Of a stretch of 64,000 nt of DNA, positions 8,386-63,990 are shown one piece after another. The notes under the pieces were generated by a model that saw nothing but the letters and a program-made list of their open reading frames with translations, ran no database searches and had not been told where the DNA came from. How positions within the stretch are numbered: position 1 is the stretch's first letter; every line of letters begins with the position of its first letter. Made by a program: the position numbers and the translations under genes. Source of the DNA: an uncultured bacterium (GTDB lineage Bacteria > Patescibacteriota > Minisyncoccia > SW-4-49-11); NCBI GenBank assembly GCA_937864235.1, contig CALMJI010000014.1, positions 5,769 through 69,768 of the forward strand. Reading direction: 5' to 3'.

Positions 8386-8448
8386 AAAAATACTGCTTAT
8401 ATGCCCAATACTAGCATATTTTGTGATTTATAGTAAGGGTATATACTA

Positions 8449-8645
8449 GATGAGGTAATTGTCGACAAAAGGGATTATATACATTACTATACTAATAACA
8501 GTAAATTGGGTGGTAATTGTCCTCCTTTGCCTGCCTGCGGTAGGCAGTGAGGAGGTGGCACAGAGTGCCGGAGGTGGATAGATTTCTAGTTTATGTTTTA
8601 TCCACCCCCGCCTTTCAGGCTTCCCCCTCCGAAGGGGGACAAAAC
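8449..8645. repeat. GC-rich modular hairpin repeat, copy R1 (carries the AT-rich 5' leader 'gatgaggtaatYgtcgacaaaagRgat')
   Basis: Shares the leader and the modules gtcctcc..aggaggtggcac, ggcacagagtgccgg, ggaggtggat..atccaccc and cccctccgaagggggac with the copies at 44676 and 48925. Confidence 0.6.
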
Positions 8646-8774
8646 TAATATTTTTTTGTCACAACCACTCAAGCAAATATAATGTCCACTTACGTAACTC
8701 GTAAATTGTCTACGATCCTTCTTATCTTATTCAGGGTATGATATAATATAAAAGTTATAAATAAACATAAATCT

Positions 8775-13202: not shown

Positions 13203-14858
13203 TTAGCTTCGGTCTATAAATTCCTCTCGGGAGCAGGGATCTGGCTTGATCAGATGTTGTGGAATCATAGCTTGTAATAATGATTCACTATTAGCTCCTA
13301 ATTTGGCTATATCATAAGCTAATTGTCTATAATTAATATGTCCTCCCGGTCTGACTCTAAGTTGTGTCATATAGCTAATTTCCTTAGGGGAAGCATGGAA
13401 AAATGAAGTAAAAATATGAGCAAATGGGAGTAGTTGAGTATAAATATATTGAGGGAACCAATCATATTGTGAACTTAAATCTACAAATTCTTGTAATTTG
13501 GTATAGTATTGTTGCAAATCCTGCTCAAATTCTTGTCTAATCTCTTTGAGAGCTGGGTTTTTGGTCAAATATAACGGTAAAGTATACCCTGTATAGAGAC
13601 TTGCTTTATAATTACTAGTGTTCAAAATTGGAATGTATCTACCCCAAGCTCGATGCCGATTCAAGTCTCTTAATTCAGAGTTAGAGCAAGTGAGTACAAA
13701 ACTATGGGTATTGACTCGAAATAAATTACCCATTTGTTTGTGATGATTGAAGTCTTTGAACAAAATTTTAGAAATATATGCCTTTTGTTCTATATTCAAA
13801 TTATCTATGAATTGTAAAATTGAATGAATATTGGCATTGGGATATATAGTTATAATATGTTGTAATAAAATTATAGTTCCCGCACTTAAACTCATATCTA
13901 ATAAGTCTGCTTTGAGTTTATGGCAAGTAATAGTATTTGCAAACTCTAAAGATTGGGTGATTTTTAGATGTTCTTCTAGATACTGCTGTAGTATATTCAA
14001 GTTTTGATTGGTAATAGTATCTGCCTCAGTATGCCTGATTAAATCTGGAGCTTCTGGAGTGTATTTTAGCTCTTGAGCTACACTTTCTTCTGGGGCAAAA
14101 AGTACTTCTAATTGCTCAGCAAGACAGACTAAATTATATTCATTGGAAGCCTTGAAAACTGAGATCAATCTAGCCCATTCTCTGGCTGAGGTTATATAGG
14201 CTAATGAAGTCTTATTCATCAGACCAGAGGGTAAAAAGTATCTAGTAGAGTCAAAAACTCTGGCTGTCAGAGCTCCTGCTTCTGACTTATTATTTTCATC
14301 TATGTTATATACTCTTGTGTATTCTGAGGTTAATTTGTCTTGGTAGTATTTATACTTTTCTAGAGAATATTGCTGTAAATCTAATAATTTCTGGTTAATT
14401 GTATCAAAGTTTTCTGAAGTTGTATCTACTCCTAGGCTATCAAGTCCCAGAGGCTTACTACTGCCAAAATCCTGATACCTAGTAGATCTTTGTTGCCCTC
14501 CTCCGACACTACTTTCATTAAAAAATATAGTAGAATAATGGTCTGGAATTTGCTCTATATAGGCAAAAAGTTGTGCCATATCTGCTACTGAGGAGTGGCC
14601 ATAATTACGAAAAATATTGGCTAGCTTTTCATTAGCATTACTGCCTGCTTTTCTAATTTCTTGGAATAACTCCTCTGCTGATAGGGCTGACCTTGAAAAT
14701 CTAGCCCCTGCAAAAGCCATAATAGATGCAGTTTGTTTGCCTGAATTTGGCAAAGCGGTTCTGACTGTATAGCCGGTACGAGAATCAGTAACCGAGACTA
14801 TAACTAAATCTGTTTTATCCTTGTCCGAGATACTAAATTTAAAGTTTGATTTATTCAT
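13203..14858 (-). CDS. thyX: Flavin-dependent thymidylate synthase ThyX-like protein (long, probably duplicated-domain form)
   Basis: 'QQRSTRY' in the N-terminal half and 'NRHRAWGRY' in the C-terminal half, matching the ThyX RHR...SxRY signature; immediately followed by dcd on the same strand. Confidence 0.45.
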   Translation of the reverse strand: MNKSNFKFSISDKDKTDLVIVSVTDSRTGYTVRTALPNSGKQTASIMAFAGARFSRSALSAEELFQEIRKAGSNANEKLANIFRNYGHSSVADMAQLFAYIEQIPDHYSTIFFNESSVGGGQQRSTRYQDFGSSKPLGLDSLGVDTTSENFDTINQKLLDLQQYSLEKYKYYQDKLTSEYTRVYNIDENNKSEAGALTARVFDSTRYFLPSGLMNKTSLAYITSAREWARLISVFKASNEYNLVCLAEQLEVLFAPEESVAQELKYTPEAPDLIRHTEADTITNQNLNILQQYLEEHLKITQSLEFANTITCHKLKADLLDMSLSAGTIILLQHIITIYPNANIHSILQFIDNLNIEQKAYISKILFKDFNHHKQMGNLFRVNTHSFVLTCSNSELRDLNRHRAWGRYIPILNTSNYKASLYTGYTLPLYLTKNPALKEIRQEFEQDLQQYYTKLQEFVDLSSQYDWFPQYIYTQLLPFAHIFTSFFHASPKEISYMTQLRVRPGGHINYRQLAYDIAKLGANSESLLQAMIPQHLIKPDPCSREEFIDRS

Positions 14859-18778: not shown

Positions 18779-19045
18779 GTGGATCTCGTGAATCGCAGGG
18801 GCAACCTTGCAGTCACCTGTGTTTTTGTATTATGACCTTTTGAATTTCTGTCCTCCTTCGGAGGAGGTGGCACAGAGTGCCGGAGGTGAATTGAGCTAAA
18901 AATTAAATTCTATCCACCCTCCCCCTTACGGGTACTCCCTCCAAAGGGAGGCAAAAGCTCCGGTACAAAAATACCTCGGGCGACATAAGGTCGCATCTAC
19001 GAACACAAAACTCAATGGAGGGATAACCTCTCCACTACGACTCTC
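18779..19045. repeat. GC-rich modular hairpin repeat, copy R2 (abuts ychF stop codon)
   Basis: Modules gtcctccttcggaggaggtggcacagagtgccggaggtg, ccctccaaagggagg and gggcgacataaggtcgcatctacgaa. Confidence 0.6.
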
Positions 19046-20175: not shown

Positions 20176-20440
20176 TGGGGAGGGTGGATGTATTTTTGTA
20201 ATTTAAGATTTTGCTCTGTAATTTAATAGGGGCGACTTTTCAGTCGCCCCTATTGTCCTCCTCCGTCACCTACGGTGACACCTCCCCCAAGGGAGGGAAA
20301 AAACTGTCCCTCGCCGGCGAGGGGGGACCGCGTAGAGGTGGGTGTGGACAGTCGACTTACAGGTCGCCCCTACGAATACATAAAACAATGGAGGGATAAA
20401 CCCCATCACAAATAAAGTATGTGATGACCTCAAACCCTCC
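20176..20440. repeat. GC-rich modular hairpin repeat, copy R3 (in the ychF / rpsF divergent region)
   Basis: Modules ggggcgacttttcagtcgcccc, gtcctcctccgtcacctacggtgacacctcc, gtccctcgccggcgaggg and ggtcgcccctacgaa. Confidence 0.6.
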
Positions 20441-20499
20441 GCTACGATATTTCATAATTTACCATTCATAATTTATAATTGATGATTTTATACATACCC

Positions 20500-28704: not shown

Positions 28705-28915
28705 AGTGGAGGTTTTTAGTCCATCCCATACCTTGTTTGGGATAGGATTTATCCCTCCAGTTTTTCGTAGGGGCGACCTTTCAGTCGCCTTAAATTCCCC
28801 TCGTTGAGGGGTGCCCGTAGGGCGGGGTGGAGTGTTTTGTTTTTCATATTTATTCCACCCCGTCAGGCAAGCCTGCCACCCCTCAATTTATCTCCCGTAG
28901 GGATGAGAGGGAAAT
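28705..28915. repeat. GC-rich modular hairpin repeat, copy R4 (pgl / dnaE divergent region)
   Basis: Modules ggggcgacctttcagtcgcc, cccctcgttgaggggtg and ccaccccgtcaggcaagcctgccacccctcaa. Confidence 0.6.
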
Positions 28916-35520: not shown

Positions 35521-35810
35521 GTTTCCGTAGGTGCGACCTTCTTAGTCGCCCGTAAATCCACCCCGTCTCTATACTATAAAAATATAGTATAGATCACCCC
35601 TCAAGAGGGGAATTTAGCTCAGTCCACACCCGGCACTCCGTGCCACCCTCGCCGGCGAGGGACAAAATTACTGTCCTCCCTTGCCTGCCTGCGGTAGGCA
35701 GGGGGGAGCTTTCAGTCCCTCCTATATTTATATAGGAGGGGGTGGCCATCAGGCAGGAGGAGGACAAGTGGACGACTGAAAGGTCGCCCCTACGAAAGAA
35801 ATTATCCCGT
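35521..35810. repeat. GC-rich modular hairpin repeat, composite copy R5
   Basis: Modules gtgcgaccttcttagtcgccc, ccaccccgtc, cccctcaagagggg, ggcactccgtgcc, ccctcgccggcgaggg, gtcctccc..cctgcctgcggtaggcagg and ggacgactgaaaggtcgcccctacgaa. Confidence 0.6.
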
Positions 35811-44616: not shown

Positions 44617-44675
44617 AGTTACCTCAAACTTGCAAACTCAACCATAACACAAAAACAAGAATTTAGCAAGTTGGT

Positions 44676-44900
44676 GTACGAGATGAGGTAATCGTCGACA
44701 AAAGAGATTGTATACATTACTAGTCTACTAACATTAAGTTCCGATAGTAGTTGTCCTCCTTTGGAGGAGGTGGCACCGTAGGTGACGGAGGAGGACAAGA
44801 TATCAAGATTATATTTAATATAATAGAATAATATTAATCTTTAAAATATATAGTCCACACCCACCACCTCGTGGTCCCCCCTCGCCAGCGAGGGACATAA
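44676..44900. repeat. GC-rich modular hairpin repeat, copy R6 (with AT-rich 5' leader)
   Basis: gtacgagatgaggtaatcgtcgacaaaagagat leader, then gtcctcctttggaggaggtggcaccgtaggtgacggaggaggacaag, then cccctcgccagcgagggac. Confidence 0.6.
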
Positions 44901-45012
44901 TATAATAGTTACTCAATTCCAAATATTTTCTATGATATCCTAATCTCGTACAAAACCTTGACTTTATATCTAATATGAGGTATAATGTTGTTTAATTATG
45001 TATTTATAGATT

Positions 45013-48475: not shown

Positions 48476-48640
48476 TGTCCTCCTTTACCTGCCTACCGCA
48501 GGCAGGCGAAGGGGGACAAAATAAACTGTCCTCCCTTGGGGGAGCTTTAAGTCCCTCCTATATTTATTTAGGAGGTGGGTGGCACCGCAAGGTGACGGAG
48601 GAGGACAAGCTGGAGACCTTTTAGGAGTCCCTCCTAAAAT
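48476..48640. repeat. GC-rich modular hairpin repeat, copy R7
   Basis: gtcctcctttacctgcctaccgcaggcagg..gtcctcccttggggg..ggagg..ggcaccgcaaggtgacggaggaggacaag. An inverted, near-identical copy lies at 58353..58495. Confidence 0.6.
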
Positions 48641-48721
48641 ATTCACAAAACCCTTTACAAAAAAACTTAAGTAATGATAAAATAAAAAAGTAGTCTTTAT
48701 GAGTACTACAATTCATATTTT

Positions 48722-48768
48722 GTTTGGGAACTGAGTGTTTAATTGAAGCCTTTACACTCAGTTCTTTT
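48722..48768 (+). terminator. Intrinsic terminator downstream of flippase/GT2 genes
   Basis: aactgagtgt/acactcagtt 10-bp stem followed by ctttttttg. Confidence 0.45.
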
Positions 48769-48924
48769 TTTGTTCAAGATAATAATGATTTTGCTAAGGT
48801 AAAGAAAAAGCTCGAGTCATTGCTCGAGCTTTCACAATGATCACCAGAGTTAGACTCTGGATCGGTGGGTAACTCCAAAAGCAATATAATAATATAAGAA
48901 TATTTTGCTTTTGTCGATACAATG

Positions 48925-49105
48925 TACGAGATGAGGTAATCGTCGACAAAAGGGATAGATACATTACTAAACTAATAACAGTAAATTGGATAGTAATTGT
49001 CCTCCTTTGGAGGAGGTGGCACGGAGTGCTGGAGGTGGATTGAGTTCTAGTTTATGTTTTATCCACCCTCCCCCTACGGGTACTCCCTCCTAAGGGAGAC
49101 AAAAT
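48925..49105. repeat. GC-rich modular hairpin repeat, copy R8 (with AT-rich 5' leader), upstream of mod
   Basis: gtacgagatgaggtaatcgtcgacaaaagggatagatacattactaaactaataacagtaaattgg leader, then gtcctcctttggaggaggtggcacggagtgctggaggtggat..atccaccc and cgggtactccctcctaagggag. Confidence 0.6.
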
Positions 49106-49256: not shown

Positions 49257-51581
49257 ATGAATAATACAGTCAAAAATTTGAAAAGTTTAATCAAAAGCAC
49301 TTTGAAGGGTGATGAGAGATTATGGTTTGTCAATCAAGATAATGAACAGGAATTCAATCAAACTTTGCTTTTGGATTTGGTAGAAAAAGTAGATAATAAA
49401 ATTATTAGTCTATTATTACAAGAGGAAGTATTAAGAGAGAAGTTTTTTGTCAAAATTGTTCCACCCCGTCCAGCAAAGCTGTCCACCCCTCAAGAGGGGA
49501 ATTTTTCCTATGTCTTCAAAACTAATGAATTTAGATTCTTTATGGAGGAGAACAAAGTAGATAATTCATATACTAGTTTCAAAAATCGCATCGGGCTTAC
49601 TGATGGTAAAAAATTCCTCAAAGATAGTGGCGATATTGTATTAGATTGGCCGTATAAAGACTGTGTGCTAGAAGGTGGGCAAAGTACGGAGGAAGGATCA
49701 GATATTTATTTTGAATATGACACTAAATCCACCCCGTCAGGCAAGCCTGCCACCCCTCAAGAGGGGAATTATATCAAGAAGCAAGGTAAGAGAAAAGAAA
49801 TATTTTTCAATCAAGTTCTAGCTCAAGATGAGATAGATAGATTGCTAGATCCAAAGGCTTTGGTTAATTGGAAAAGATTTGATAAAAATGGTAAAACTCC
49901 CCTCTTGAGTGGTGGCGACGAAGTCGACGGGGTGGATGCTCTCAAAAGAAATGAAGACGGCACTATTGCTGAGAATTTGATTATAAAAGGCAATAATCTC
50001 TTAGCTCTACACTCTCTCAAAAAACAATTCCGAGGCAAAGTCAAGCTGATTTATATTGACCCACCTTATAATACTGGTAATGATGGCTTCAAATATAATG
50101 ATAACTTCAATCACTCCACTTGGCTGACTTTTATGAAAAATAGATTGGAAGTGGCAAGAGAGCTATTGCGGGAGGATGGGGTGATCTTTGTGCAATGTGA
50201 TGATAATGAGCAAGCATATTTGAAGGTTTTAATGGATGAGGTGTTTGGGAATAATTTTTTGAATACTATATCTGTAAAAGCAAAAGTTAGTGCAGGAGCA
50301 AGCGGAGGAGGTGAGGATAAAAGACTTAAAAAGAATATAGAGTATATACATTGTTACTTTAAGAAAGATTTTATTGTTTTTAACGATTTATACAAAGAAA
50401 CAGAAATAGTTTCATATATACAACAGATGAAAAATGAAGGGAAAAGTTTTAAATATACTCAGGTTTTAATTTCTACTGGTGAAAAAGAAATATTAAGAGT
50501 TATTAAAGATGGTTCTGGAGAAGATATTACAATCTATAAACACTCAGGAGTTGTAATTAAAACAATCTCTCAATTAATAAAAGAAGAGAATCTTTCTGTA
50601 AAGGAGGTATATAAAAAATATTTCAATAAAATTTTCACAACAACGAATGCACAAAGTTCAATTCGCCAAAGAGTTTGGGATGCAACTGGTAAAAACAATG
50701 ATTTTTTTAGTATTGAATATATTCCAAAATCAGGAAGAAATAAAGATAAATTAACCACACAATTTTATACAGGAAATAAAAAGGTTCTTCTAATATGGTT
50801 TAGCGATACAGCTATAATTGATAGTAAAGGAAATGTAATTAAAAAAGAAAAATACGGTACATTTTGGGATGGAATTGACTATAATAACTTAAATAAAGAG
50901 GGCGATAATATTTTTTCTTCTGGTAAAAAACCAGAAAAACTTATTCAAAGGATAGTTGAAATGAGTACAGAAAAAGGCGACATTGTGCTTGACTATCATC
51001 TTGGCTCTGGGACTACTTGTGCAGTGGCTCATAAAATGGGTCGGCAGTATATTGGAATTGAGCAAATGGATTATATTGAGACTATCGCTGTGGAGAGGTT
51101 AAAGAAAGTAATTAGGCAATCCACCTCCCCCGCTAAAGCGGGTACTCCTCAAGATGAGAATATTCCCCTCGTTGAGGGGTGGACTGCGAAGCAGGACGGG
51201 GTGGATTCTTTTGACACAGGAGGAATATCCAAAGCTATAAATTGGCAAGGTGGTGGCGATTTTATCTATTTTGAACTAGCTAAATGGAATCAGCAGGCTA
51301 AAGAAATAATTCAAGCAGCTGAGAGTTTGGAGGAGATGATTGGATGTTTGGATGAATTATCTGATAAATATTTCCTCAATTATAATCTCAAAATGCAAGA
51401 ATTTCGAGAAAAGGTAATCTTGGAGGCTGAGTTCCAAACTTTATCTCTAGAGAGCCAAAAAGCTATATTTATGGCTATGCTGGATAATAATCAGATGTAT
51501 GTCAATAAAAGTGAAATGGCTGATGAGAAATTTGGTATTAGTGAAGAGGAGCAGAAATTGACAGAGGAGTTCTATAAGTAA
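49257..51581 (+). CDS. mod: Type III restriction-modification system methyltransferase (Mod; beta-class N6-adenine/N4-cytosine MTase)
   Basis: Motif IV 'IYIDPPYN' upstream of motif I 'VLDYHLGSGTT' (beta-class order); 774 aa; a res gene lies downstream. It carries four in-frame GC-rich repeat modules. Confidence 0.8.
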   Translation: MNNTVKNLKSLIKSTLKGDERLWFVNQDNEQEFNQTLLLDLVEKVDNKIISLLLQEEVLREKFFVKIVPPRPAKLSTPQEGNFSYVFKTNEFRFFMEENKVDNSYTSFKNRIGLTDGKKFLKDSGDIVLDWPYKDCVLEGGQSTEEGSDIYFEYDTKSTPSGKPATPQEGNYIKKQGKRKEIFFNQVLAQDEIDRLLDPKALVNWKRFDKNGKTPLLSGGDEVDGVDALKRNEDGTIAENLIIKGNNLLALHSLKKQFRGKVKLIYIDPPYNTGNDGFKYNDNFNHSTWLTFMKNRLEVARELLREDGVIFVQCDDNEQAYLKVLMDEVFGNNFLNTISVKAKVSAGASGGGEDKRLKKNIEYIHCYFKKDFIVFNDLYKETEIVSYIQQMKNEGKSFKYTQVLISTGEKEILRVIKDGSGEDITIYKHSGVVIKTISQLIKEENLSVKEVYKKYFNKIFTTTNAQSSIRQRVWDATGKNNDFFSIEYIPKSGRNKDKLTTQFYTGNKKVLLIWFSDTAIIDSKGNVIKKEKYGTFWDGIDYNNLNKEGDNIFSSGKKPEKLIQRIVEMSTEKGDIVLDYHLGSGTTCAVAHKMGRQYIGIEQMDYIETIAVERLKKVIRQSTSPAKAGTPQDENIPLVEGWTAKQDGVDSFDTGGISKAINWQGGGDFIYFELAKWNQQAKEIIQAAESLEEMIGCLDELSDKYFLNYNLKMQEFREKVILEAEFQTLSLESQKAIFMAMLDNNQMYVNKSEMADEKFGISEEEQKLTEEFYK
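49460..49505 (+). repeat. In-frame GC-rich repeat module inside mod (encodes PPRPAKLSTPQEGN)
   Basis: ccaccccgtccagcaaagctgtccacccctcaagaggggaat, the same module as intergenic copies R4, R5 and R14. Confidence 0.55.
49729..49770 (+). repeat. In-frame GC-rich repeat module inside mod (encodes STPSGKPATPQEGN)
   Basis: ccaccccgtcaggcaagcctgccacccctcaagaggggaat, nearly identical to R4 at 28856..28885. Confidence 0.55.
49897..49940 (+). repeat. In-frame GC-rich repeat module inside mod, inverted orientation (encodes PLLSGGDEVDGVD)
   Basis: cccctcttgagtggtggcgacgaagtcgacggggtggat. It contains the reverse complement of the ccaccccgtc and cccctcaaga modules. Confidence 0.45.
51121..51200 (+). repeat. 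In-frame GC-rich repeat module inside mod C-terminal region (encodes STSPAKAGTPQDENIPLVEGWTAKQDGVD)
   Basis: ccacctcccccgctaaagcgggtactcctcaag..cccctcgttgaggggtgg..gacggggtggat. It shares gggtactcc, cccctcgttgagggg and ccaccccgtc motifs with R2, R4 and R8. Confidence 0.5.
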
Positions 51582-51590
51582 TTATGAATT

Positions 51591-52628
51591 ATGAAAAAAG
51601 AGAAAAAACAATTATCTCAAATCATACAATCAAGTACAGCTCAGTATTTGACTTTTGTGTCGGCCAATGGTGATGATTCGTCTAGTATAGAAGTAAGATA
51701 TGAGGATGAGAATATTTGGATGACTCAAAAAATGCTGGCGGAACTGTATGATGTATCTGTGTCGGCCATCAATCAGCATATTAAGAAATTAACAGAAGAT
51801 AATGAGATAAACGATTCAGTTATTAAGCAATACTTAATAACTGCTAGTGATGGTAAGAAATATAATACGGCTCACTACAATCTTCAAACAATTATTTCTA
51901 TTGGATTTAAAATAGAAAATGAAAGAGCGGTACAATTTCGTAAATGGGCAAGAGAAATAGTAAAAGAGTATACTATTAAGGGTTTTGTAATGGATGATGA
52001 GAGGCTCAAAAATGGAGGTACCACTTTAACTAAAGAGTTTTTTGAACAACTTCTTGAAAGAATTAGAGAAATAAGGCTATCGGAGAGAAAGTTTTATCAA
52101 AAAATTACTGATATTTATGCAACAGCGATTGATTATGATTCTAGTGCAGAGACGACAAAAAAGTTTTTTGCTATGGTACAAAACAAGCTTCACTGGGCAA
52201 TTCATGGACAAACAGCCTCTGAATTGATCTATACTCGGGCAAATTCAGAAAAAGAAAATATGGGGCTTACTTCTTGGAAAGATGCACCAAAAGGGAAAAT
52301 TCAAAAATTTGATGTGAGTATTGCCAAAAATTATCTTACTGACAAAGAACTTGCAAGTTTACAAAGAATAGTATCGGCATATCTGGATATCGCAGAAGAT
52401 ATGGCAGAGAGAAATATCCCAATGACAATGCAAGATTGGGCAAAAAGACTCAATACCTTTATAGAGGCAGCAGATAGAAAAGTGCTTCAAGATGCTGGGA
52501 AGATTACCGCACAAATAGCAAAGGACTTTGCAGAAAGTGAATTTGAAAAATATAGAATTGTGCAAGATAGATTGTTTGAATCAGATTTTGACCGTGAGAT
52601 AAAAAAACTTTTAGAAAACAATTTATAA
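51591..52628 (+). CDS. RhuM-family (virulence-protein RhuM-like) HTH protein embedded between mod and res
   Basis: N-terminal 'TQKMLAELYDVSVSAINQHIKKL' HTH and conserved RhuM-like core 'RAVQFRKWAREIVKEY'; 345 aa. Confidence 0.5.
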   Translation: MKKEKKQLSQIIQSSTAQYLTFVSANGDDSSSIEVRYEDENIWMTQKMLAELYDVSVSAINQHIKKLTEDNEINDSVIKQYLITASDGKKYNTAHYNLQTIISIGFKIENERAVQFRKWAREIVKEYTIKGFVMDDERLKNGGTTLTKEFFEQLLERIREIRLSERKFYQKITDIYATAIDYDSSAETTKKFFAMVQNKLHWAIHGQTASELIYTRANSEKENMGLTSWKDAPKGKIQKFDVSIAKNYLTDKELASLQRIVSAYLDIAEDMAERNIPMTMQDWAKRLNTFIEAADRKVLQDAGKITAQIAKDFAESEFEKYRIVQDRLFESDFDREIKKLLENNL

Positions 52629-52631
52629 TAT

Positions 52632-53474
52632 ATGAAAACACAATTAATTCACCAACTTACGGCCAATTTCGAAGATTTATCACATCAGACAAATTATGGA
52701 GTAGAGTTTTGGTTGGCAAGAGACTTACAACATCTTTTGGGCTATGATAAATGGGATAATTTTAAGAATATTATTAGTAAAGCAAAAACAGCTTGTGAAA
52801 TTTCTGGGCAGAAAGTTACAGACCATTTTGCCGACGTCGGGAAAATGGTCTCTATAGGTTCAGGTGCTGAAAAAGAAATAGAAGACTTAATGTTAACTCG
52901 CTATGCTTGTTATCTCATTGCTCAAAATGGAGACTCAAGAAAACAGGAAATTGCCTTTGCTCAGACTTATTTTGCAGTACAAACCAGAAAAGCTGAAATT
53001 ATAGAACAAAAAATCCTTGAATATGAAAGAGTTCAGGCTAGAAATAAACTTGCAGAAACTGAAAAAGAGCTATCTCAAGTAATATTTGAACAAACAGGAA
53101 GTGATCAAAACTTTGCACTAATTAGAAGTAAAGGTGATCAAGCTTTATTTAATCAAACTACTCAACAAATGAAGGGTAAATGGGGAATTAAGAATAAGCC
53201 TCTTGCTGATTTTATGCCAACCATATTACTGAAAGCTAAAGATTTTGCTACTGAAATTACTATTTTTAATGCCAAAGAAAAAAAGATGCAAACAGAGCAT
53301 CAAATTTCAAATGAGCATATTACTAACAATAAATCTGTGAGACATACTCTTATTACTCGTGGTATTACTCCAGAAAATTTACCACCTGAAGAAGATGTCA
53401 AAAAAATTGCCAGAAAACTAAAAAAAGAGGAGAAAAAAACTATTAAAACAGATGATACCTTTGGTAATTCATAA
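52632..53474 (+). CDS. dinD: DNA-damage-inducible protein D (DinD)-like protein
   Basis: 'GVEFWLARDLQHLLGYDKWDNFKNIISKAKTACEISGQKVTDHFADVGKMV...LTRYACYLIAQNGDSRKQEIAFAQTYFAVQTRKAE' aligns closely with the E. coli DinD N-terminal domain. Confidence 0.6.
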   Translation: MKTQLIHQLTANFEDLSHQTNYGVEFWLARDLQHLLGYDKWDNFKNIISKAKTACEISGQKVTDHFADVGKMVSIGSGAEKEIEDLMLTRYACYLIAQNGDSRKQEIAFAQTYFAVQTRKAEIIEQKILEYERVQARNKLAETEKELSQVIFEQTGSDQNFALIRSKGDQALFNQTTQQMKGKWGIKNKPLADFMPTILLKAKDFATEITIFNAKEKKMQTEHQISNEHITNNKSVRHTLITRGITPENLPPEEDVKKIARKLKKEEKKTIKTDDTFGNS

Positions 53475-53489
53475 CTTATAATTAACACT

Positions 53490-56261
53490 ATGTCAGAGAT
53501 CAAAAATCTATATGAAATCATCGGAGAAAAGGCTTATAGGCTAAGATTGCCTTATCCTGAAATTCCAGATTATATTACTGATAATCTGAAATATAGTTTT
53601 TTTGATTGGCAAAAGTCGGCTTTTGAGAATTTTTTGACTTATCAGGCGATTAAGGACATTGAAACTCCTAATGAGCCGACTCATCTGATGTTTAATATGG
53701 CCACAGGTACTGGTAAAACTATGCTGATGGCAGCTACTATTTTGTATTATTATAAGCAGGGGTATCGGCATTTTTTGTTTTTTGTGAATCAAAATAATAT
53801 TGTAGATAAGACGGAGAATAATTTTATAGATAATGCTCATAATAAGTATTTGTTTCAGGATAAAATTGTTATTGACAGAGAAACGGTGGAATTAAAGAAA
53901 GTTGAGGTGTTTAGTGATAATCCGACTGGAATTGAGATTAAGTTTACTTCGATTCAAAAATTGTATAATGATATTCATTTGCAAAAAGAGAATCAGACTA
54001 CCTTGGATGATTTGATGTCTCGTGATTTGGTGATGTTGGCAGATGAGGCTCATCATTTTAACACTGATACCAAAAAAGCTAAATTGCAGACTAATTTGAT
54101 TGAGGCGGAATTAAATAATAAATCTAGTGAAAATTTGATTGAAAAGTTGGGTTGGGAGCATACGGTTATAGAGTTGATTTTGAAAAGAAATAATTCACAA
54201 GATCATCTGCGGGCGAATAAAAATGTGCTTTTGGAATTCACGGCGACTATTCCAGCTACGGCGAGTGTGGCTAAAAAATATGAGGATAAAATCATTTATA
54301 AATTTGGCTTAAAGGAGTTTTTACAAGCAGGTTATACTAAGCAAATTAATCTTATTTCGTCGAATTTGGAGAAAAAGGATAGAATTTTGCAGGCTTTGCT
54401 TTTCCATTGGTATCGGCATAAAGTAGCTCTAGATGCTGGTATTCCTAATTTTAAGCCAGTGATTTTGTTTAGAAGCAAGACTATTGAGGAGTCTAAACAG
54501 GATTATGAGGAATTTGTGGATATGGTATCTAATTTGTCTTTGGAGGATTTGAAATTCTTGGATTATATTTTGGAGAATTTTAAGTTTGCTAATCATAGTC
54601 TGTATGAGCAAGGTAAGAATAGAACGGAGCAATTGGTGGATTATATACAGGTGAATAAAATTAGCCGTAGTGAGATTATAGATTTTATTAAGCATAATTT
54701 TCAAGAGAAAAATATAATTATTACTAATTCCAAAAGTAATAAAACCAAAAAAGAGAAAACTGATGCTGAGGTGGAGCGATTATTGAATAATCTAGAGGAT
54801 AAGAATAATCATATTCGGGCTATTTTTACGGTGGAGCGATTGACTGAAGGTTGGGATGTCTTGAATTTGTATGATATTGTCCGGCTGTATGAAGGGCAAA
54901 ATACGGGTGGCTCAAACTTTAAATCTAATAAAACTCCAGAGTCAACTACAAAGGAAAAACAGCTGATTGGGCGAGGGGTGAGATATTATCCTTTTGATTA
55001 CCCAGAAAAGGATAGGCATAAGCGAAAATTTGATAATGATACTCAAAAGCGAGAGCGAATTTTGGAGGAGCTATTCTTTTATAGTGTGAATGAAAGTAGA
55101 TATATTTCAGAGCTAAAAACCGAGTTAAAAAGGGAGGGGTTTATTGATGAGAATCGGAATATTAGAACTTTTGAATTAAAAGAAAATTTCAAAAAGACAG
55201 ATTTTTATAAGCAATTCAGAGTCTGGCAAAATAAAAAAATCCCTAATCCTAATCGGCGAAAAAACACTTTAGCTGACTTGAAGCAGGACAAGAATTATTT
55301 TATTGCTCCTTTTCAAGTGCAAAATTATAGTGTCAAAGAGTACGGAGTGGATTTTAATAACCCTGAAAAGGAAATTAGGCAGAATCAGATGGCAAATCCT
55401 AATGCTAATTATACGATTAAATTAACTAAAGTGGAGAGGCATATTTTTTATAAGGCGATTCATATTCTGGCTAAGCAAGAAAATTCTCTGTATAGATTCG
55501 ATAAATTGAGTCAGGAATTGGCTATCAATAGTATTGATGACTTGTTAAAACCAGAATTTTTGGGGGATATGGAGGTGGCTTTCAAGCTCCCAGCAAAGAT
55601 GAGTTATCTGGATTTGGATAATAAGCATAAATTGAATGCGGTGATTTTGTTTTTGGCAGATATTGAGAGTAGATTAACTGAGTCTATTAGTGAATATATA
55701 GGTAGTCGGGAGTTTTATCCTAAGAGTCTGGATAGTATTTTTGGAGCTCCTAAAGCTAAAGTTATTGATGAGCTAAATGAAAATACCGAATTTGCTGAGC
55801 AAAATGATTGGTATGTATTGAATAATTTTGTGGGCACAGATCAGGAGCGATATTTGGTGGAATTTATCAAAGACTCTATGTCGCAGTTGGAGCAGCAATA
55901 TAAAGAGATTTATCTTTTGCGAAACGAGGAGATTTATGGGATTTATGATTTTGATAAGGGTAGAACTTTTATGCCAGATTTCTTGCTGTTTTTGAAGACT
56001 AAAGATAAAAAGAGTGTCGGAGTGGCAAATACAGAATTATATTATCAGGTATTTATCGAGCCAAAAGGTGAGCAATTATTATCTTTGGATGCTTGGAAAA
56101 ATGATTTTCTGAATAAAATTCAAAAAGATTATGGTCCTGAGAATATTATTCAAGCTGAGAATCCTAATTATAGGTTAATTGGATTGCCTTTATTTAATCA
56201 ACAACTGAGTGCTGAATTTAGAGATAAATTTTCAAAATTAATGGAAACTAATAACAGCTAA
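53490..56261 (+). CDS. res: Type III restriction enzyme, Res subunit (SF2 helicase plus PD-ExK nuclease)
   Basis: Walker A 'MATGTGKT', DEAH box 'MLADEAHH', helicase motif VI region, and C-terminal PD-(D/E)xK-like 'MPDFLLFL...VFIEPKG'; 923 aa. Confidence 0.8.
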   Translation: MSEIKNLYEIIGEKAYRLRLPYPEIPDYITDNLKYSFFDWQKSAFENFLTYQAIKDIETPNEPTHLMFNMATGTGKTMLMAATILYYYKQGYRHFLFFVNQNNIVDKTENNFIDNAHNKYLFQDKIVIDRETVELKKVEVFSDNPTGIEIKFTSIQKLYNDIHLQKENQTTLDDLMSRDLVMLADEAHHFNTDTKKAKLQTNLIEAELNNKSSENLIEKLGWEHTVIELILKRNNSQDHLRANKNVLLEFTATIPATASVAKKYEDKIIYKFGLKEFLQAGYTKQINLISSNLEKKDRILQALLFHWYRHKVALDAGIPNFKPVILFRSKTIEESKQDYEEFVDMVSNLSLEDLKFLDYILENFKFANHSLYEQGKNRTEQLVDYIQVNKISRSEIIDFIKHNFQEKNIIITNSKSNKTKKEKTDAEVERLLNNLEDKNNHIRAIFTVERLTEGWDVLNLYDIVRLYEGQNTGGSNFKSNKTPESTTKEKQLIGRGVRYYPFDYPEKDRHKRKFDNDTQKRERILEELFFYSVNESRYISELKTELKREGFIDENRNIRTFELKENFKKTDFYKQFRVWQNKKIPNPNRRKNTLADLKQDKNYFIAPFQVQNYSVKEYGVDFNNPEKEIRQNQMANPNANYTIKLTKVERHIFYKAIHILAKQENSLYRFDKLSQELAINSIDDLLKPEFLGDMEVAFKLPAKMSYLDLDNKHKLNAVILFLADIESRLTESISEYIGSREFYPKSLDSIFGAPKAKVIDELNENTEFAEQNDWYVLNNFVGTDQERYLVEFIKDSMSQLEQQYKEIYLLRNEEIYGIYDFDKGRTFMPDFLLFLKTKDKKSVGVANTELYYQVFIEPKGEQLLSLDAWKNDFLNKIQKDYGPENIIQAENPNYRLIGLPLFNQQLSAEFRDKFSKLMETNNS

Positions 56262-56264
56262 TTT

Positions 56265-57272
56265 ATGGCCTATATATTCACCCTTTTATTCTTAATCTCT
56301 TGTGTCTGTCTAGTGGTGGGTCTGATTAGGCCGAGGGTTTTTGCGGGATTATTCCAGGGTAAGTCTACCAGAAAGCAGATTGGGATTATGTTTGGGATGC
56401 TGATTTTTGTCTCATTTGTTTTGGTGGCTGCTAGTCCTCTTCCAGAGGGTTATGAAGAACAGTCTAATGAGCCAAAAGCAGAGGAAGTGGTAATTCCAGA
56501 GACTGAGGTTGCTAACTCTGAGCCAGAAGAGGTGAAACCTGAGGAAGTACAAGAGGAAAACACCCCTGTAGAGGCAAATTTGCCTGCTCCAGTGGCAGTT
56601 CAAGACAACACTAGTATTACAGAGGCAGAAGTAAAACCTGAGCCAAAAGAGGAGCAAAACCAGGTTAAGGATTTATTCCAAGTGACGGAGGTAGTGGATG
56701 GAGATACGATTAAAGTTAGTCTTCTTGGAACTTTACGGCTAATTGGGATAGACACTCCAGAGACTAGAGACCCAAGGAAGCCAGTGCAGTGTTTTGGAAG
56801 AGAAGCTAGTAATAAAGCAAAAGAATTATTGAGTGGTAGAAAAGTGTATTTGGAATATGATCCTGCTAACAAAAAAGATAAGTATGGGCGGACTTTGGCT
56901 TATGTCTATCGGGAAGATGGGTTGTTTTATAATGCTGAGATGATAAAACAGGGTTATGCCCACTCTTATGTACAATTCCCACATCCTAGATTAGATGAGT
57001 TTAATATTTATCAGCGAGAGGCTAGAGAAAATGAACGAGGCTTTTGGGCGACTAATACTTGTAATGGAGATACAACTAAGGCTGCTTCTGGATCAAAGCC
57101 TAAATCTACTACTCCCCTACCAATTAGTCCAGAATTCAATAAAGATGGATTTATAGCAGGAACTTGTGCTAGTCTCAAAAAATTGGGTTTGGGTAATTTT
57201 AGAGAGGGTGACCCGAATTATACTAAATCAAGGGACGGGGACGGAGATGGGGTCGCTTGTGAGATGAATTAA
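56265..57272 (+). CDS. Membrane-anchored staphylococcal-nuclease (SNase/thermonuclease) domain protein with C-terminal Excalibur Ca-binding domain
   Basis: Two N-terminal TM helices, E/P-rich linker, SNase core 'VVDGDTIKV...LRLIGIDTPE...GRTLAYVY', C-terminal 'DGDGDGVACE' Excalibur motif. Confidence 0.75.
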   Translation: MAYIFTLLFLISCVCLVVGLIRPRVFAGLFQGKSTRKQIGIMFGMLIFVSFVLVAASPLPEGYEEQSNEPKAEEVVIPETEVANSEPEEVKPEEVQEENTPVEANLPAPVAVQDNTSITEAEVKPEPKEEQNQVKDLFQVTEVVDGDTIKVSLLGTLRLIGIDTPETRDPRKPVQCFGREASNKAKELLSGRKVYLEYDPANKKDKYGRTLAYVYREDGLFYNAEMIKQGYAHSYVQFPHPRLDEFNIYQREARENERGFWATNTCNGDTTKAASGSKPKSTTPLPISPEFNKDGFIAGTCASLKKLGLGNFREGDPNYTKSRDGDGDGVACEMN

Positions 57273-57328: not shown

Positions 57329-58033
57329 TCAGCCAACGAGTGCGGCTGCTGCCATTCGAGCTATTTCACGGTTTTCAAATCCGATATCCATCAGAGCTTC
57401 CTGATAGGAACTGAGGAAATCAGCCATCAGGTCTTCCTTGTCCATGTGAAGCGCTTTAGCATCCACAGCCACCTGGTCGAGCATTTTGCGAACCAAGGGC
57501 AGATTGTCCCGGTTAGCCTGCTTCAATTCCTCCCGACTGGCATTGAGATTGGCCTTCAGCCATTCCTGTCCGTAGTTGAGATGAGTGTATTCATCTTTGA
57601 CCACCCGTTCTGTGATCTTGCGGGCAAATGGATCGGCCACTGGGATATAAATGTGGTAGGCGGAAATCGCAAAGGCTTCGATCAAGATTGCCTGAATCAA
57701 CATGCAGGTCACCACTTTGCCATCAGTGATGGCCTTCTGAAAATTGCCATGCAATGGAGCGAAGAACTCCTTTGCAAACGGCATATCTGCTGTCACACCG
57801 AGGTTGTTGGCACAGGCGGTGAAACCTTTCATATGCTTGAGCTCCATGCGGGCCAGCTTGACAAGCTCCTCCACCTGGTCTGGCATCAGGGTGCCAATAG
57901 CGATGTAGTTGTCATGAGCCTCCTGTTCACCCTTGATTACGATGGCATTGATGCGACTGTAGGCATCTTTGTAGGTGTCACTTGTGAAGTCTGGGAGATC
58001 AGATTGTTCACCGGTAATTGATACTGCTGTCAA
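57329..58033 (-). CDS. ado: Aldehyde-deformylating oxygenase (ADO, cyanobacterial-type ferritin-like di-iron enzyme), N-terminally truncated, apparent TTG start
   Basis: Near full-length match to the cyanobacterial ADO family signature blocks 'DFTSDTYKDAYSRINAIVIKGEQEAHDNYI', 'KGFTACANNLGV', 'CMLIQAILIEAFAISAYHIYIPVADPFARKITERVVKDEYTHLNYGQEWLKAN'. The ORF sits in a ~770-bp block of about 50% GC, against about 30% background. Confidence 0.8.
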   Translation of the reverse strand: MTAVSITGEQSDLPDFTSDTYKDAYSRINAIVIKGEQEAHDNYIAIGTLMPDQVEELVKLARMELKHMKGFTACANNLGVTADMPFAKEFFAPLHGNFQKAITDGKVVTCMLIQAILIEAFAISAYHIYIPVADPFARKITERVVKDEYTHLNYGQEWLKANLNASREELKQANRDNLPLVRKMLDQVAVDAKALHMDKEDLMADFLSSYQEALMDIGFENREIARMAAAALVG

Positions 58034-58352
58034 GGTGCTAGCTGGGAGTTTAACCCAGGCTATAGGACATTTTTATACTATACCTTTTTGATAGTTTTGT
58101 ATATAGTATAAAATAAAAGGAGGGTTTTTATACCCTCATATGAATAAATAGCATTTTGATAAAAATTGTAAGTGCGTAAAATGAAAGAATTACAGCGGCG
58201 GTGGCAGATAAGAATCTTATAAGTCTAAAGTCCATATATCAAAACTTCATAGGTCAATTCTAAACCAGCATTTTTTATAAGATAATTCAAGATTGGGTGA
58301 ATTTAAAATATGTGGAGATGGATATCCACCTCAGAATGGTAACATAATATAA

Positions 58353-58495
58353 GTCCTCCTCCGTCACCTACGGTGCCACCCACCTCCTAAATAAATATAG
58401 GAGGGACTTAAAGCTCCCCCAAGGGAGGACAGTAATTTTGTCCCTCGCCAGCGAGGGACAAAATACAACAGGCGACTGAAAGGTCGCCCATACAA
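58353..58495. repeat. GC-rich modular hairpin repeat, copy R13 (inverted orientation relative to R7)
   Basis: gtcctcctccgtcacctacggtgccacccacctcctaaataaatataggagggacttaaagctcccccaagggaggac is the reverse complement of 48530..48610. It is followed by gtccctcgccagcgagggac and ggcgactgaaaggtcgccc. Confidence 0.6.
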
Positions 58496-58499
58496 AAAA

Positions 58500-58820
58500 C
58501 TACTCCGCCTCTGACTCCTCTCCTCCACCAATAGTGAAAGCTGAGATTAGCTGTTCCCGAACGGCCTCAATATTAGCTTGGATAATTTCTGAGACTATAT
58601 TACTAGCTTCTTGTTGTCCTTGTTCTATTCCTTCTTGAACAATTTTCTCCCCTTCAGCTACGATTGGTTGGGATATTTCGGCTACTGGTTGAGTTACGGT
58701 AGCTAGATTTGGTTTTATAAAAGTATTAAATACAATTACACCTCCAACAATTGAGAGTATTAGAAAGACTCCAATTCCAGCAATGATGAAAGTGAAGATT
58801 TTAGGCATCATTTTAGGCAT
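58500..58820 (-). CDS. Hypothetical small membrane-anchored protein
   Basis: 106 aa; N-terminal TM helix, E/Q-rich C-terminal region. Confidence 0.3.
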   Translation of the reverse strand: MPKMMPKIFTFIIAGIGVFLILSIVGGVIVFNTFIKPNLATVTQPVAEISQPIVAEGEKIVQEGIEQGQQEASNIVSEIIQANIEAVREQLISAFTIGGGEESEAE

Positions 58821-61842: not shown

Positions 61843-61870
61843 AAAAGAAAAAAGTAGCTCAGGGAGCTAC
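61843..61870 (-). terminator. Putative intrinsic terminator (minus strand)
   Basis: gtagctc/gagctac stem followed on the minus strand by ttttttctttt. Confidence 0.4.
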
Positions 61871-62349
61871 TTAGGTTTATCTTTTCTATTTCTTGAGGAT
61901 CTAGGGTATATTATTAGTATAATACCTATACAGATCAGAAATATACTTAGATATAAATTGATATTTTGATGGTTAAATTTATTTTGAAATATATTTTTTA
62001 CTCCAAAAAATCCAGTATATATACCTAGTAAAATCCCCAACTGATATTTATTATATTGTTTAATGAAATTTTGAAACAGTTTTTTCATTGTTTTAACAAA
62101 GAAGCCAATATAATATACTATAAATTTAGCTAATTGATAAGAGTGTGTGTTGGGATTGAAAATTGAGGGATAGTTTTTTTTGTCCTCCTTTCTACCTACG
62201 GCAGATAAATGGAGGAGGTGGTCTTTAGGTCGGAGGTGGATTTGAGCTAAATTCCCCTCTTGAGGGGTGGACAGCTTTGCTGGACGGGGTGTAAAATAAA
62301 ATATATTCAAATTATAAAAATACTCCACCCCACCGCCTAAAGACGGCAC
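61867..62349 (-). CDS. Small membrane protein; the annotated N-terminal about 50 aa are encoded by repeat R14 (true start probably an internal Met, e.g. MKKLFQNF)
   Basis: The C-terminal two-thirds is AT-rich with two TM helices. The N-terminus 'FTPRPAKLSTPQEGN' is the same peptide encoded by the in-frame repeat at 49460 in mod. Confidence 0.3.
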   Translation of the reverse strand: MPSLGGGVEYFYNLNIFYFTPRPAKLSTPQEGNLAQIHLRPKDHLLHLSAVGRKEDKKNYPSIFNPNTHSYQLAKFIVYYIGFFVKTMKKLFQNFIKQYNKYQLGILLGIYTGFFGVKNIFQNKFNHQNINLYLSIFLICIGIILIIYPRSSRNRKDKPK

Positions 62350-62455
62350 CCCTCAAGAGGGGAATTTTTTAGAGCAAACAGGCGACTGAAAGGTCACCCC
62401 CTCCTAAACTAATAAAGTATGGGAGGGACAAAAGCCTACTAAGGGAGACAAAATT
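62181..62455. repeat. GC-rich modular hairpin repeat, composite copy R14
   Basis: gtcctcctttctacctacggcag..ggaggaggtgg, ggaggtggat, cccctcttgaggggtggacagctttgctggacggggtg (inverted module), ccaccccacc, cccctcaagaggggaat and ggcgactgaaaggtcacccc. Confidence 0.6.
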
Positions 62456-62474
62456 ACAGGAAAAAAAGGCACCT

Positions 62475-63585: not shown

Positions 63586-63990
63586 TTATAAATTTAGGGT
63601 AAATATATCATCGGATACAGCTTCCTCATCCATTTGAGCTTTAGCTGCTTGAATTTTGAGTAATTGTTCAGGGTCTGAAGTTATGATTTGGTCTTCTCCA
63701 TAAGATGCAACTACTTTTATAGCTGCGTGTTTTAATCCAGCAAAGAAAATACCTTCTCCTACATCTGACTCTAGTAATAAGAATTTTTCTTCTTCAGTTA
63801 GATAAAAGGTATCTTTAATAATATCGATTGAGGCTGGTGATTGTTTTAGTAAAATCTGAATGGAAGAATTGGTAAGAATAGCCTTCCCATATTCAGAAGC
63901 TAGGAAATCCGCAATATCCTGAGTAATAGTAGTAAGCCCAAGATAGTATTTACGCGCTCTTTTGGCTAGAGAGAATAGGAAAGATGCCAC
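63586..63990 (-). CDS. C-terminal fragment of a VirB4/TrbE-like conjugative or type IV secretion ATPase (partial at window edge)
   Basis: 'LGLTTITQDIADF...ILLKQSP' resembles the C-terminal region of VirB4-family ATPases; the N-terminus lies beyond the window. Confidence 0.3.
   Translation of the reverse strand: MASFLFSLAKRARKYYLGLTTITQDIADFLASEYGKAILTNSSIQILLKQSPASIDIIKDTFYLTEEEKFLLLESDVGEGIFFAGLKHAAIKVVASYGEDQIITSDPEQLLKIQAAKAQMDEEAVSDDIFTLNL

Follow-up and report, generated by a model that had tools for sequence, protein, structure and literature searches.

What are short GC-rich palindromes doing inside the reading frame of a DNA methyltransferase gene? The question is raised by a 64-kb stretch of DNA (the window) from an uncultured Patescibacteriota bacterium, with a GC content of about 33% and short GC-rich islands, whose type III restriction-modification (R-M) methyltransferase gene, mod, contains several double-hairpin repeat units of about 42 nt. 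Comparisons with homologues and with empty sites confirm, at the level of sequence, that these segments of mod are inserted copies of a dispersed repeat, not native Mod sequence. It is quite likely that they are tolerated in-frame copies of an element resembling repetitive extragenic palindromic (REP) sequences and Rickettsia palindromic elements (RPEs), located in permissive loops of a functional Mod protein, turned over between species and homogenised with the rest of their family.

Repeat units in mod and between genes

A covariance model (R1) was aligned from 39 distinct units of other genomes, and the window was searched with it unfiltered; an R1 match with E<1e-10 is called a strong copy. 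The window contains 10 strong copies, five inside mod and five between the main open reading frames (ORFs):

49257..51581, + strand: type III R-M methyltransferase gene mod, 774 aa (ORF and translation), host of the inserts
49460..49502, + strand: unit 1 (R1 65.5 bits, E=4.5e-23), encoding (V)PPRPAKLSTPQEGN, residues 68-82
49728..49769, + strand: unit 2 (R1 67.3 bits), encoding STPSGKPATPQEGN, residues 158-171
49896..49936, - strand: unit 3 (R1 44.4 bits), read through as (T)PLLSGGDEVDGVD, residues 214-227
51120..51161, + strand: unit 4a, a degenerate variant (TCCACCTCC...; R1 34.3 bits), encoding STSPAKAGTPQDEN, the left half of a 93-nt insertion
51162..51205, - strand: unit 4b (R1 55.7 bits), read through as IPLVEGWTAKQDGVD
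28794-28831 (- strand) and 28854-28904 (+ strand): intergenic inverted pair (R1 43.2 and 35.7 bits)
35557..35613, + strand: intergenic unit with a long AT-rich palindrome as its middle hairpin (R1 44.0 bits)
62251-62293 (- strand) and 62324-62365 (+ strand): inverted pair outside the main genes (R1 59.4 and 55.7 bits)

Read from 5′ to 3′, the unit begins with TCCACCCC-G, continues with a short perfect palindrome that is specific to the sub-family, and ends with (C)CACCCCTC-AA-GAGGGG-AAT; the constant arms TCCACCCC and CCACCCCTCAAGAGGGGAAT flank the hypervariable perfect palindrome, which has no G-T pairs. An earlier note on this DNA had described four in-frame modules inside mod, three of them N-terminal to the DPPY motif. 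Their positions hold within a few bases, and their number does not, as R1 resolves five units and the fourth module is a head-to-head inverted dimer of units 4a and 4b, whose predicted folding energy with its flanks is -44.3 kcal/mol. All in-gene units preserve the mod reading frame, the 774-aa translation contains exactly the peptides that the note had quoted, and units 1-3 precede the DPPY motif at residues 268-271.

The in-gene units are nearly the same in sequence as copies elsewhere in the window. In particular, unit 1 has a 98% match over 46 nt to the complementary strand of the copy at 62249-62294, and the first 33 nt of unit 2 are the same letters as the intergenic copy from 28854. Both a 20-mer core and a gapped unit pattern have 6 matches in the window, compared to 0.00 expected from shuffles, which excludes coincidence. 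Moreover, mod makes up 3.6% of the window yet holds 5/10 strong copies (p=1.4e-5 by length). The inverted pair at 62251-62365 overlaps the start of a doubtful 160-aa ORF with a GTG start (61867-62349, - strand), which has no Pfam match.

Weaker R1 matches belong to other sub-families in intergenic hairpin clusters, including a 630-bp region directly 5′ of mod:

48476..49105, intergenic: GC-rich hairpin modules of related sub-families (arms TCCACCTCC / CCTCCTCC..GGAGGA), with weak R1 matches at 48550-48605 and 48996-49039

The TCCACCTCC arm presumably resembles the 3′ end of 16S rRNA (the anti-Shine-Dalgarno). More intergenic GC-rich hairpin clusters with the same plan lie at 8431-8650, 18849-19030, 20250-20450, 35620-35800, 44660-44910, 58350-58500 and 62180-62460, and blocks of 60-96 nt recur in such clusters at 76-100% identity. 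Weak R1 matches in other ORFs of the window (13220-13263 and 56493-56536) were rejected, their sequence not being unit-like on reading. No Rfam family matches the units, either in the whole window at the gathering threshold or in the mod region at an E-value threshold.

Presence and absence of the units among relatives

If the units are insertions, homologous proteins should exist without them. In a 24-sequence alignment, all four inserts are missing in 20/20 homologues at 56-75% identity, including proteins source-labelled Rickettsiales, Rikenellaceae and Parcubacteria, and are present only in three very close relatives, whose DNA is 97% identical over the N-terminal part of mod and whose units 1-3 are nearly unchanged. 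Unit 1 is likewise missing in homologues P0004-P0090. The alignment that the earlier note had proposed as a check thus bears out its claim that the modules are inserted repeats: they are missing in the listed homologues (53-75% identity), patchy in syntenic orthologues and found also between genes, and among the homologues compared no unrelated lineage carries equal peptides at equal sites.

Five more distant Paceibacteria orthologues from syntenic loci (L124-L128), at synonymous divergences (dS) of 1-2, form a mosaic of filled, altered and empty sites. At site 1, L126 has a unit with the same letters as the window, and in L127 the middle hairpin CAGCAAAGCTG is swapped for CTGCTTCGCAG, the hairpin of unit 4b; L128 has a degenerate unit, L125 has one that a 21-nt deletion has eroded, and the site is empty in L131, from a 25% GC genome. 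At site 2, the forward unit of the window corresponds to a 21-nt-deletion remnant in L124, to a reverse-oriented unit with a different hairpin in the same loop in L125 and L127, and to no unit in L126 and L128. Site 3 is filled in the window, L003-L005, L124 and L127, and empty in L125, L126 and L128. The 93-nt dimer insertion at site 4 is found only in the clade of the window and in L127, and is missing in L124, L125, L126 and L128.

Further, the mod gene of L127 stops exactly where unit 4a does, which is the dimer's centre, and its C-terminal domain is lost. At L127:4500-4830, the C-terminal stretch of about 125 residues is replaced by about 30 unrelated codons, which looks like a palindrome-centred deletion or rearrangement. 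Unit gain, unit loss and this repeat-centred truncation are seen only between species.

Effect of the inserts on the Mod protein

By its domains, motif order, fold and partner Res gene, the host protein is classified as a type III R-M methyltransferase. Two Pfam domains match, N6_N4_Mtase (PF01555, E=2.6e-48) and TypeIII_RM_meth (PF12564, E=7e-07), and the motifs follow the beta-class order of DPPY, a variable target-recognition domain and FxGxG. In an alignment of homologues, which are typically about 700 aa long, D268-P269-P270 of the DPPY motif (residues 268-271) are invariant and Y271 is nearly so, and the GSG of FxGxG (G583-S584-G585) is nearly invariant. The AlphaFold model of Mod has a mean predicted local distance difference test score (pLDDT) of 75.8, and its top Foldseek matches are the Mod subunits of EcoP15I (4zcf), 6k0w and 7dsu. 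The same 774-aa protein is found, letter for letter, on 12 contigs of several sources, and one member of its 90% protein cluster carries the name Candidatus Parcubacteria.

The inserts had been expected in surface loops, and the AlphaFold model places all of them in low-pLDDT coil between confident elements, with a weaker case for unit 2. Residues 68-82 (unit 1) are predicted as a coil between strands 64-67 and 84-87, with a mean pLDDT of 54 at residues 71-80. Unit 2 (residues 158-171) falls in a low-confidence N-terminal stretch with block means of 54 and 47 at residues 151-170 and values <50 at 163-169. In the unit 3 region, pLDDT is <50 at residues 218-226, and around the 4a/4b dimer it is <50 at residues 625-650, between helix 610-619 and helix 656-658. 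If the inserts are read through, the predicted junction peptides across them are FFVKIVPPRPAK, LSTPQEGNFSYVFK and AGTPQDENIPLVEGWTAK.

Over the first 325 mod codons, comparison with eight orthologues gives ratios of nonsynonymous to synonymous substitution rates (dN/dS) of 0.07-0.30, at dS up to about 2. Because the motifs are conserved, dN/dS is low and the same protein recurs on 12 contigs, Mod looks functional with its inserts in place.

The family in other genomes

A scan with the gapped pattern, using one genome per species, found at least 118 loci; the matches listed contain 149 units, of which 143 lie outside the window, and the unit counts given here and below hold among these matches. 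Positions that the pattern does not specify are also conserved: G follows the 5′ arm in nearly all units, AAT follows the last hairpin in 132/149 and the loop is AA in 110/149, which indicates that the survey matches are homologous. One GC-rich match (L017) was set aside as a family member, as it looks like chance. The middle segment has 119 distinct sequences in the 149 units and forms hairpins well above shuffled controls.

[quoted passage not shown] Other hosts include complete Kapabacteria chromosomes, Ignavibacteria and termite-gut Bacillota MAGs; MAGs labelled Thermotogaceae, Hyphomicrobiales, Simkania and others also match, with low GC making some of these labels doubtful. In the Bacillota MAG from termite gut, a T-run follows 15/17 units, and 25/63 CPR units have an inverted partner upstream.

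The units also occur inside other genes. Outside the window, 17/143 units are flanked on both sides by at least 60 codons of open frame. Ten colonised genes were checked and confirmed by Pfam, namely those for arginase, KsgA, PurD, PheT, TatD, Tgt, RNase R, PIF1 helicase, an FAD oxidase and type I HsdS; in arginase, TatD and RNase R, a single Pfam domain match spans the insert. Frame-keeping cases number 18 vs 3 candidate split genes, an excess that fits read-through, not excision or bypass. In most units inside ORFs the 3′ arm gives ...TPQEG(N), and only a few units give APLKRG or use another frame. Moreover, 15/63 CPR units are inside ORFs vs 0/63 elsewhere (Fisher p=2.4e-5), where the 63 non-CPR units are those of Kapabacteria/Ignavibacteria, Bacillota and MAGs labelled Thermotogaceae or Hyphomicrobiales. 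One host gene, the type I HsdS at L085:4044-6311 (- strand) of a MAG labelled Saccharibacteria, has its two specificity domains separated by about 110 repeat-derived residues together with a complete DUF559 endonuclease-like domain.

Searches for a carrier, for simpler forms and for related peptides gave negative results. When ORFs of at least 120 aa from the 118 listed loci were clustered for a linked transposase, no family was present in more than 6 loci; a scan of viral contigs gave 2 matches only, with no sign of phages carrying the element. Units without a middle hairpin, which would point to a nested-insertion origin of the CCACCCC direct repeat, did not appear, the matches being second halves of full units. 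A phmmer search of the 33-aa insert-4 peptide against 1.84 billion representatives returned six matches, all unrelated repeat proteins, and a word-index search with a synthetic 59-aa query joined from unit peptides yielded only three tiny fragments. In the literature, coverage of which was incomplete so that an earlier description is possible, no paper was found that links palindromic repeats with CPR lineages or holds the core sequence.

Tentatively, and at somewhat less than an even chance, these units may form an undescribed multi-phylum family that colonises coding sequence only in Patescibacteria. About a quarter of the sampled copies there sit in frame inside real genes, some of them essential; R-M genes would be hot spots, and in-gene copies would be actively kept identical to the family by gene conversion or hairpin-specific machinery. 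If true, loop insertions would keep arising from the element in proteins encoded by ultra-small genomes.

Conservation of the units at the DNA level

Among the 39 aligned units, the middle hairpin's three central pairs take all four Watson-Crick types, with 38-39/39 sequences paired and with neither a G-U pair nor a one-sided change; the covariation score is 0.375 vs 0.088 for shuffles and at most 0.046 for slid controls. The lack of wobble intermediates is as expected of a palindrome kept at the DNA level, where both strands must pair; under selection on an RNA fold, some wobble pairs should remain. It is possible that the palindrome is maintained by hairpin-templated correction or by the copying of whole units. 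Each hairpin variant is present in several copies, indicating that whole units are propagated. Since no neighbouring gene family recurs and only two viral contigs match, the element looks non-autonomous.

Between the window and L126, unit 1 is identical at 42/42 positions, compared to 79% identity over 408 flanking aligned bases (p=5e-5); between the window and L127, unit 3 is identical at 38/41 positions, compared to 81% in its flanks. Together with the hairpin swap in L127, this excess identity suggests overwriting of in-gene copies by other copies; another possibility is selection on the sequence of the unit.

Phase variation and target specificity

Phase-variable type III mod genes (phasevarions) are known from Haemophilus, Neisseria and Helicobacter, where switching proceeds through simple-sequence tracts. 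The present gene shares the enzyme class, and its alleles likewise differ in the central target-recognition domain, but it lacks such tracts and its repeats are 42-nt palindromic units that are fixed among close strains. In particular, the mod ORF contains no homopolymer of at least 8 nt (at least 6 for C/G) and no multi-copy short repeat; the sole short repeat near mod is an (AT)4 run 5′ of the start codon. The promoter region has no homopolymer tract either, and for mod and this region Tandem Repeats Finder lists no more than two arrays, both marginal (2.3 and 2.6 copies). The units are fixed and near-identical across four strains with 97% identity in the mod region, and the same 774-aa protein recurs on 12 contigs. 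Therefore, with the tract missing and the units fixed, the suggestion that the modules act as a programmed phase-variation device is not supported.

The further suggestion that the modules tune Mod specificity fares no better. Strain differences come from replacement of the target-recognition domain, which varies by cassette exchange: at 50240-50930 (Mod residues ~330-556), strains that are 97% identical in the N- and C-terminal parts of mod have unrelated central target-recognition domains. The breakpoints are outside the repeats and in conserved methyltransferase motifs, and the repeats were rejected as sites of the exchange. In P0014, the exchanged segment reaches beyond insert site 4.

Comparison with known repeat systems

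The best-known cases of palindromic repeats colonising genes in frame come from Rickettsia and a handful of further lineages, and Ogata et al. in 2000 reportedly found RPEs inserted in frame into protein-coding genes (summarised in PMC3733652). The likeness to RPEs that the earlier note had drawn holds for behaviour, and extends to the in-frame units in at least 10 other real CPR genes. Both are short palindromic repeats found between and within genes; their in-gene copies keep the frame, are missing in homologues, fall in loops, by prediction for the units here, and add 14-31 residues; several copies can share a gene, as single units or dimers; and both occur in small AT-rich genomes of host-dependent bacteria. 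In contrast to RPEs, the host here belongs to the Patescibacteria, not the Rickettsiales; the units are about 42 nt long, compared to 100-150 bp for RPE-1; they consist of constant arms around a hypervariable palindrome; the family is also present in several other phyla; and orthologues share an identical in-gene copy despite diverged flanks. By analogy, the element is likened to RPEs in its behaviour and is not filed as one.

The CGTC-tagged REP superfamily, which includes Neisseria dRS3, RPE-4 and RPE-6, spans five phyla and has no dedicated transposase (Di Nocera et al. 2013, PMC3733652). The same authors catalogued intragenic REPs, whose behaviour is similar to that of the units here, and defined the REP stem as 8-9 bp with A/T pairs at positions 1-2 and a loop of 4-5 nt (PMC3733652). 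The tags fit about two thirds of the units: CCCCGTC precedes the middle hairpin in 100/149, the rest having GCC, GGC or GCT, and CCA follows it in about two thirds. Intragenic copies and a spread over phyla, here including the Chlorobi/Ignavibacteria side and Thermotogae-labelled MAGs, are also shared. Inverted dimers are frequent among the units, and they have no apparent dedicated transposase. However, the middle stems here are mostly 4-6 bp, GC-rich and without A/T feet, with loops of 3-4 nt, and the unit adds the invariant hairpin CCCCTC-AA-GAGGGG and a 5′ arm. Peptides that the authors list for CGTC REPs inside genes, such as VIPGLDPGIH...DGRVKPGHD (PMC3733652), are unrelated to STP..TPQEGN here. 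With the stem criteria failing and the peptides differing, the units were not filed under CGTC-tagged REPs.

GTAG REPs and the bacterial interspersed mosaic elements (BIMEs) built from them, which are mobilised by REP-associated tyrosine transposases (RAYTs), share with the units a short GC-rich extragenic palindrome, frequent inverted pairs and, probably, the handling of single-strand hairpins. There is no GTAG tag at the unit ends, and no RAYT/Y1 transposase among the 26 window ORFs scanned (30 others being outside the scan) or as a recurrent neighbour in the 118 listed loci. A GTAG REP/RAYT system (REPtron) was rejected for want of the tag and of a RAYT among the scanned window ORFs. Classification as a MITE (miniature inverted-repeat transposable element) was also rejected, as there are no terminal inverted repeats with target duplication and the junctions at sites 1, 3 and 4 are ragged.

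Yeast mitochondrial GC clusters, including the 'byp' inserts, are likewise mobile modules, palindromic and GC-rich, that have entered protein-coding genes in a genome rich in AT. Byps disrupt the frame, and the ribosome hops over them. Unlike byps, the units here keep the frame in 18/21 informative cases, which makes plain read-through the simplest reading.

Origin of the inserts and alternative explanations

Overall, we favour a course of events in which a dispersed non-autonomous double-hairpin repeat, abundant in a Paceibacteria-type genome, was copied into mod. The copies that survived would be those that kept the frame, contained no stop codon and fell in a tolerant, disordered surface loop, and they would most likely be transcribed and translated with mod as Pro/Thr/Gly/Glu-rich loop extensions of a Mod protein that stays functional. 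Between species, in-gene units would be gained, overwritten by family members, eroded by deletions or, occasionally, destroy the gene at the palindrome centre; the in-gene units stay much closer to the genome-wide family than the coding DNA around them does, which points to gene conversion or constraint at the DNA level. Two candidate routes of copying are the transposition of single-strand hairpins, carried out by an unlinked HUH-type enzyme, and recombination or template switching between copies. The near-neutrality of the inserts and the copying mechanism are what we infer from these comparisons.

Several observations weigh against this account. When filled and empty sites were compared, sites 1, 3 and 4 had neither a target-site duplication nor a clean junction, the junctions being ragged, so that transposition stays a candidate mechanism. 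The density of copies in mod is above that of a random passenger model, and mod may be a preferred target or the units may be functional there. Perfect conservation of unit 1 across diverged orthologues could mean a selected function, not gene conversion. AlphaFold confidence is low over the whole of residues 101-194, hence the loop placement of unit 2 is weak, and we only infer that the inserts are translated.

If the units do have a function, it could lie at the nucleic-acid level, as transcription attenuation, as an effect on mRNA stability or translation, or as fragile, recombinogenic palindromes that speed methylase inactivation and reshuffling at the R-M locus; we consider this unlikely. 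The terminal hairpin of unit 1 is followed by AATTTTT, resulting in a terminator-like call at 49486-49499 (to 49510), about 80 codons into mod, and T-runs follow nearly all units (15/17) of the termite-gut Bacillota MAG; however, the terminal stem has just 5-6 pairs and two A residues stand before the T-run. A nucleic-acid-level role would also fit the folding of the 4a/4b dimer to -44.3 kcal/mol, the truncation of L127 mod exactly at its centre, the presence of half of the window's strong copies in mod, the conservation of unit 1 far above its flanks and the large repeat cluster in the type I HsdS gene of another CPR genome. Against these stand equal units in housekeeping genes unrelated to defence, breakpoints of target-recognition-domain exchange that fall in methyltransferase motifs and not in units, and orthologues in which units are present, absent or decayed and which all have low dN/dS. 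A function of the peptides themselves, for instance if they served as flexible linkers or as interaction loops with an effect on DNA handling or on the assembly of Mod with Res, is still less probable. The strong frame bias, with the 3′ arm read mostly as TPQEG(N), and the hydrophilic, Pro/Gly-rich character of the peptides agree with such selection, but a filter for harmless peptides would yield an equal frame bias. Moreover, the inserts are predicted to be disordered and are patchy among orthologues under similar purifying selection, the same peptide is found in unrelated enzymes, and the conservation is at the nucleotide level, synonymous positions included.

The remaining explanation, in which the segments belong natively to Mod or arose as an assembly artefact and are like the intergenic repeats by coincidence, has hardly any probability left. 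The sole point in its favour is that some orthologues at 60-65% identity have insert 1 in common; in contrast, zero matches are expected from shuffles, distant homologues are without inserts, empty sites are visible at the DNA level, and the gene is identical in independent assemblies of several sources. The homologue and empty-site comparisons refute this explanation, and the tolerated in-frame copies of a dispersed repeat remain the account that we prefer.

The R-M locus and neighbouring observations

Downstream of mod, a block of genes continues on the same strand, with two genes between mod and res:

51591-52628, + strand: rhuM-family gene (Pfam PF13310)
52632-53474, + strand: Bro-N gene (Pfam PF02498)
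53490-56261, + strand: type III Res helicase-nuclease gene (Pfam PF04851, ResIII)

A secreted nuclease gene is the last member of this block (mod, rhuM-family, Bro-N, Res, nuclease). The synteny of the R-M locus is kept in the related metagenome contigs L003-L005 and L124-L127, and the gene order on syntenic contigs is dnaA - rpmH - rnpA - yidC - flippase - glycosyltransferase - repeats - mod - rhuM - res - nuclease. The genes between mod and res differ by locus: L126 has none, the two being adjacent, L003 has rhuM only and L125 has a 104-aa ORF.

Just past the R-M/nuclease block, a 234-aa ORF at 57329-58033 (- strand) matches, at E=1.9e-114, the Pfam family Ald_deCOase of long-chain fatty aldehyde decarbonylases. 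The ORF is part of an island with 47% GC and adjoins a hairpin-repeat cluster, and L003 has a different 176-aa ORF at its position. The Ald_deCOase family is typical of cyanobacteria, and the ORF seems to have been acquired horizontally and recently. At the window's edge, an ORF at 63586-63990 (- strand) has a TraG P-loop domain match (E=3.4e-07) and is possibly part of a conjugative or type IV secretion module. Near the other end, a 400-nt GC-rich stretch of many hairpins at 2028-2430 folds far better than shuffled sequence on either strand (z=-5.3 and -5.9); Rfam offers no family for it, and the 120-aa ORF that overlaps it (2072-2434, - strand) has no Pfam match. The stretch may be another repeat cluster or an unannotated structured RNA.

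Implications for CPR genomes

For the biology of R-M systems, the locus indicates that specificity varies here by exchange of target-recognition domains, not by repeat-driven phase variation. The part most deserving of follow-up is a multi-phylum family that, among the matches listed, invades coding sequence only in CPR bacteria, and the constant arms of its units offer a handle for finding the machinery that copies the hairpins. Such inserts will mislead gene callers and alignments, and differences in length and apparent "insertions" in CPR proteomes may often be repeat-derived. Overall, the CPR case suggests that in-frame colonisation by palindromes recurs in small, AT-rich, host-dependent genomes, here with a different family, which touches the essential enzymes PheT, KsgA, Tgt and RNase R and has placed five copies in one defence gene.

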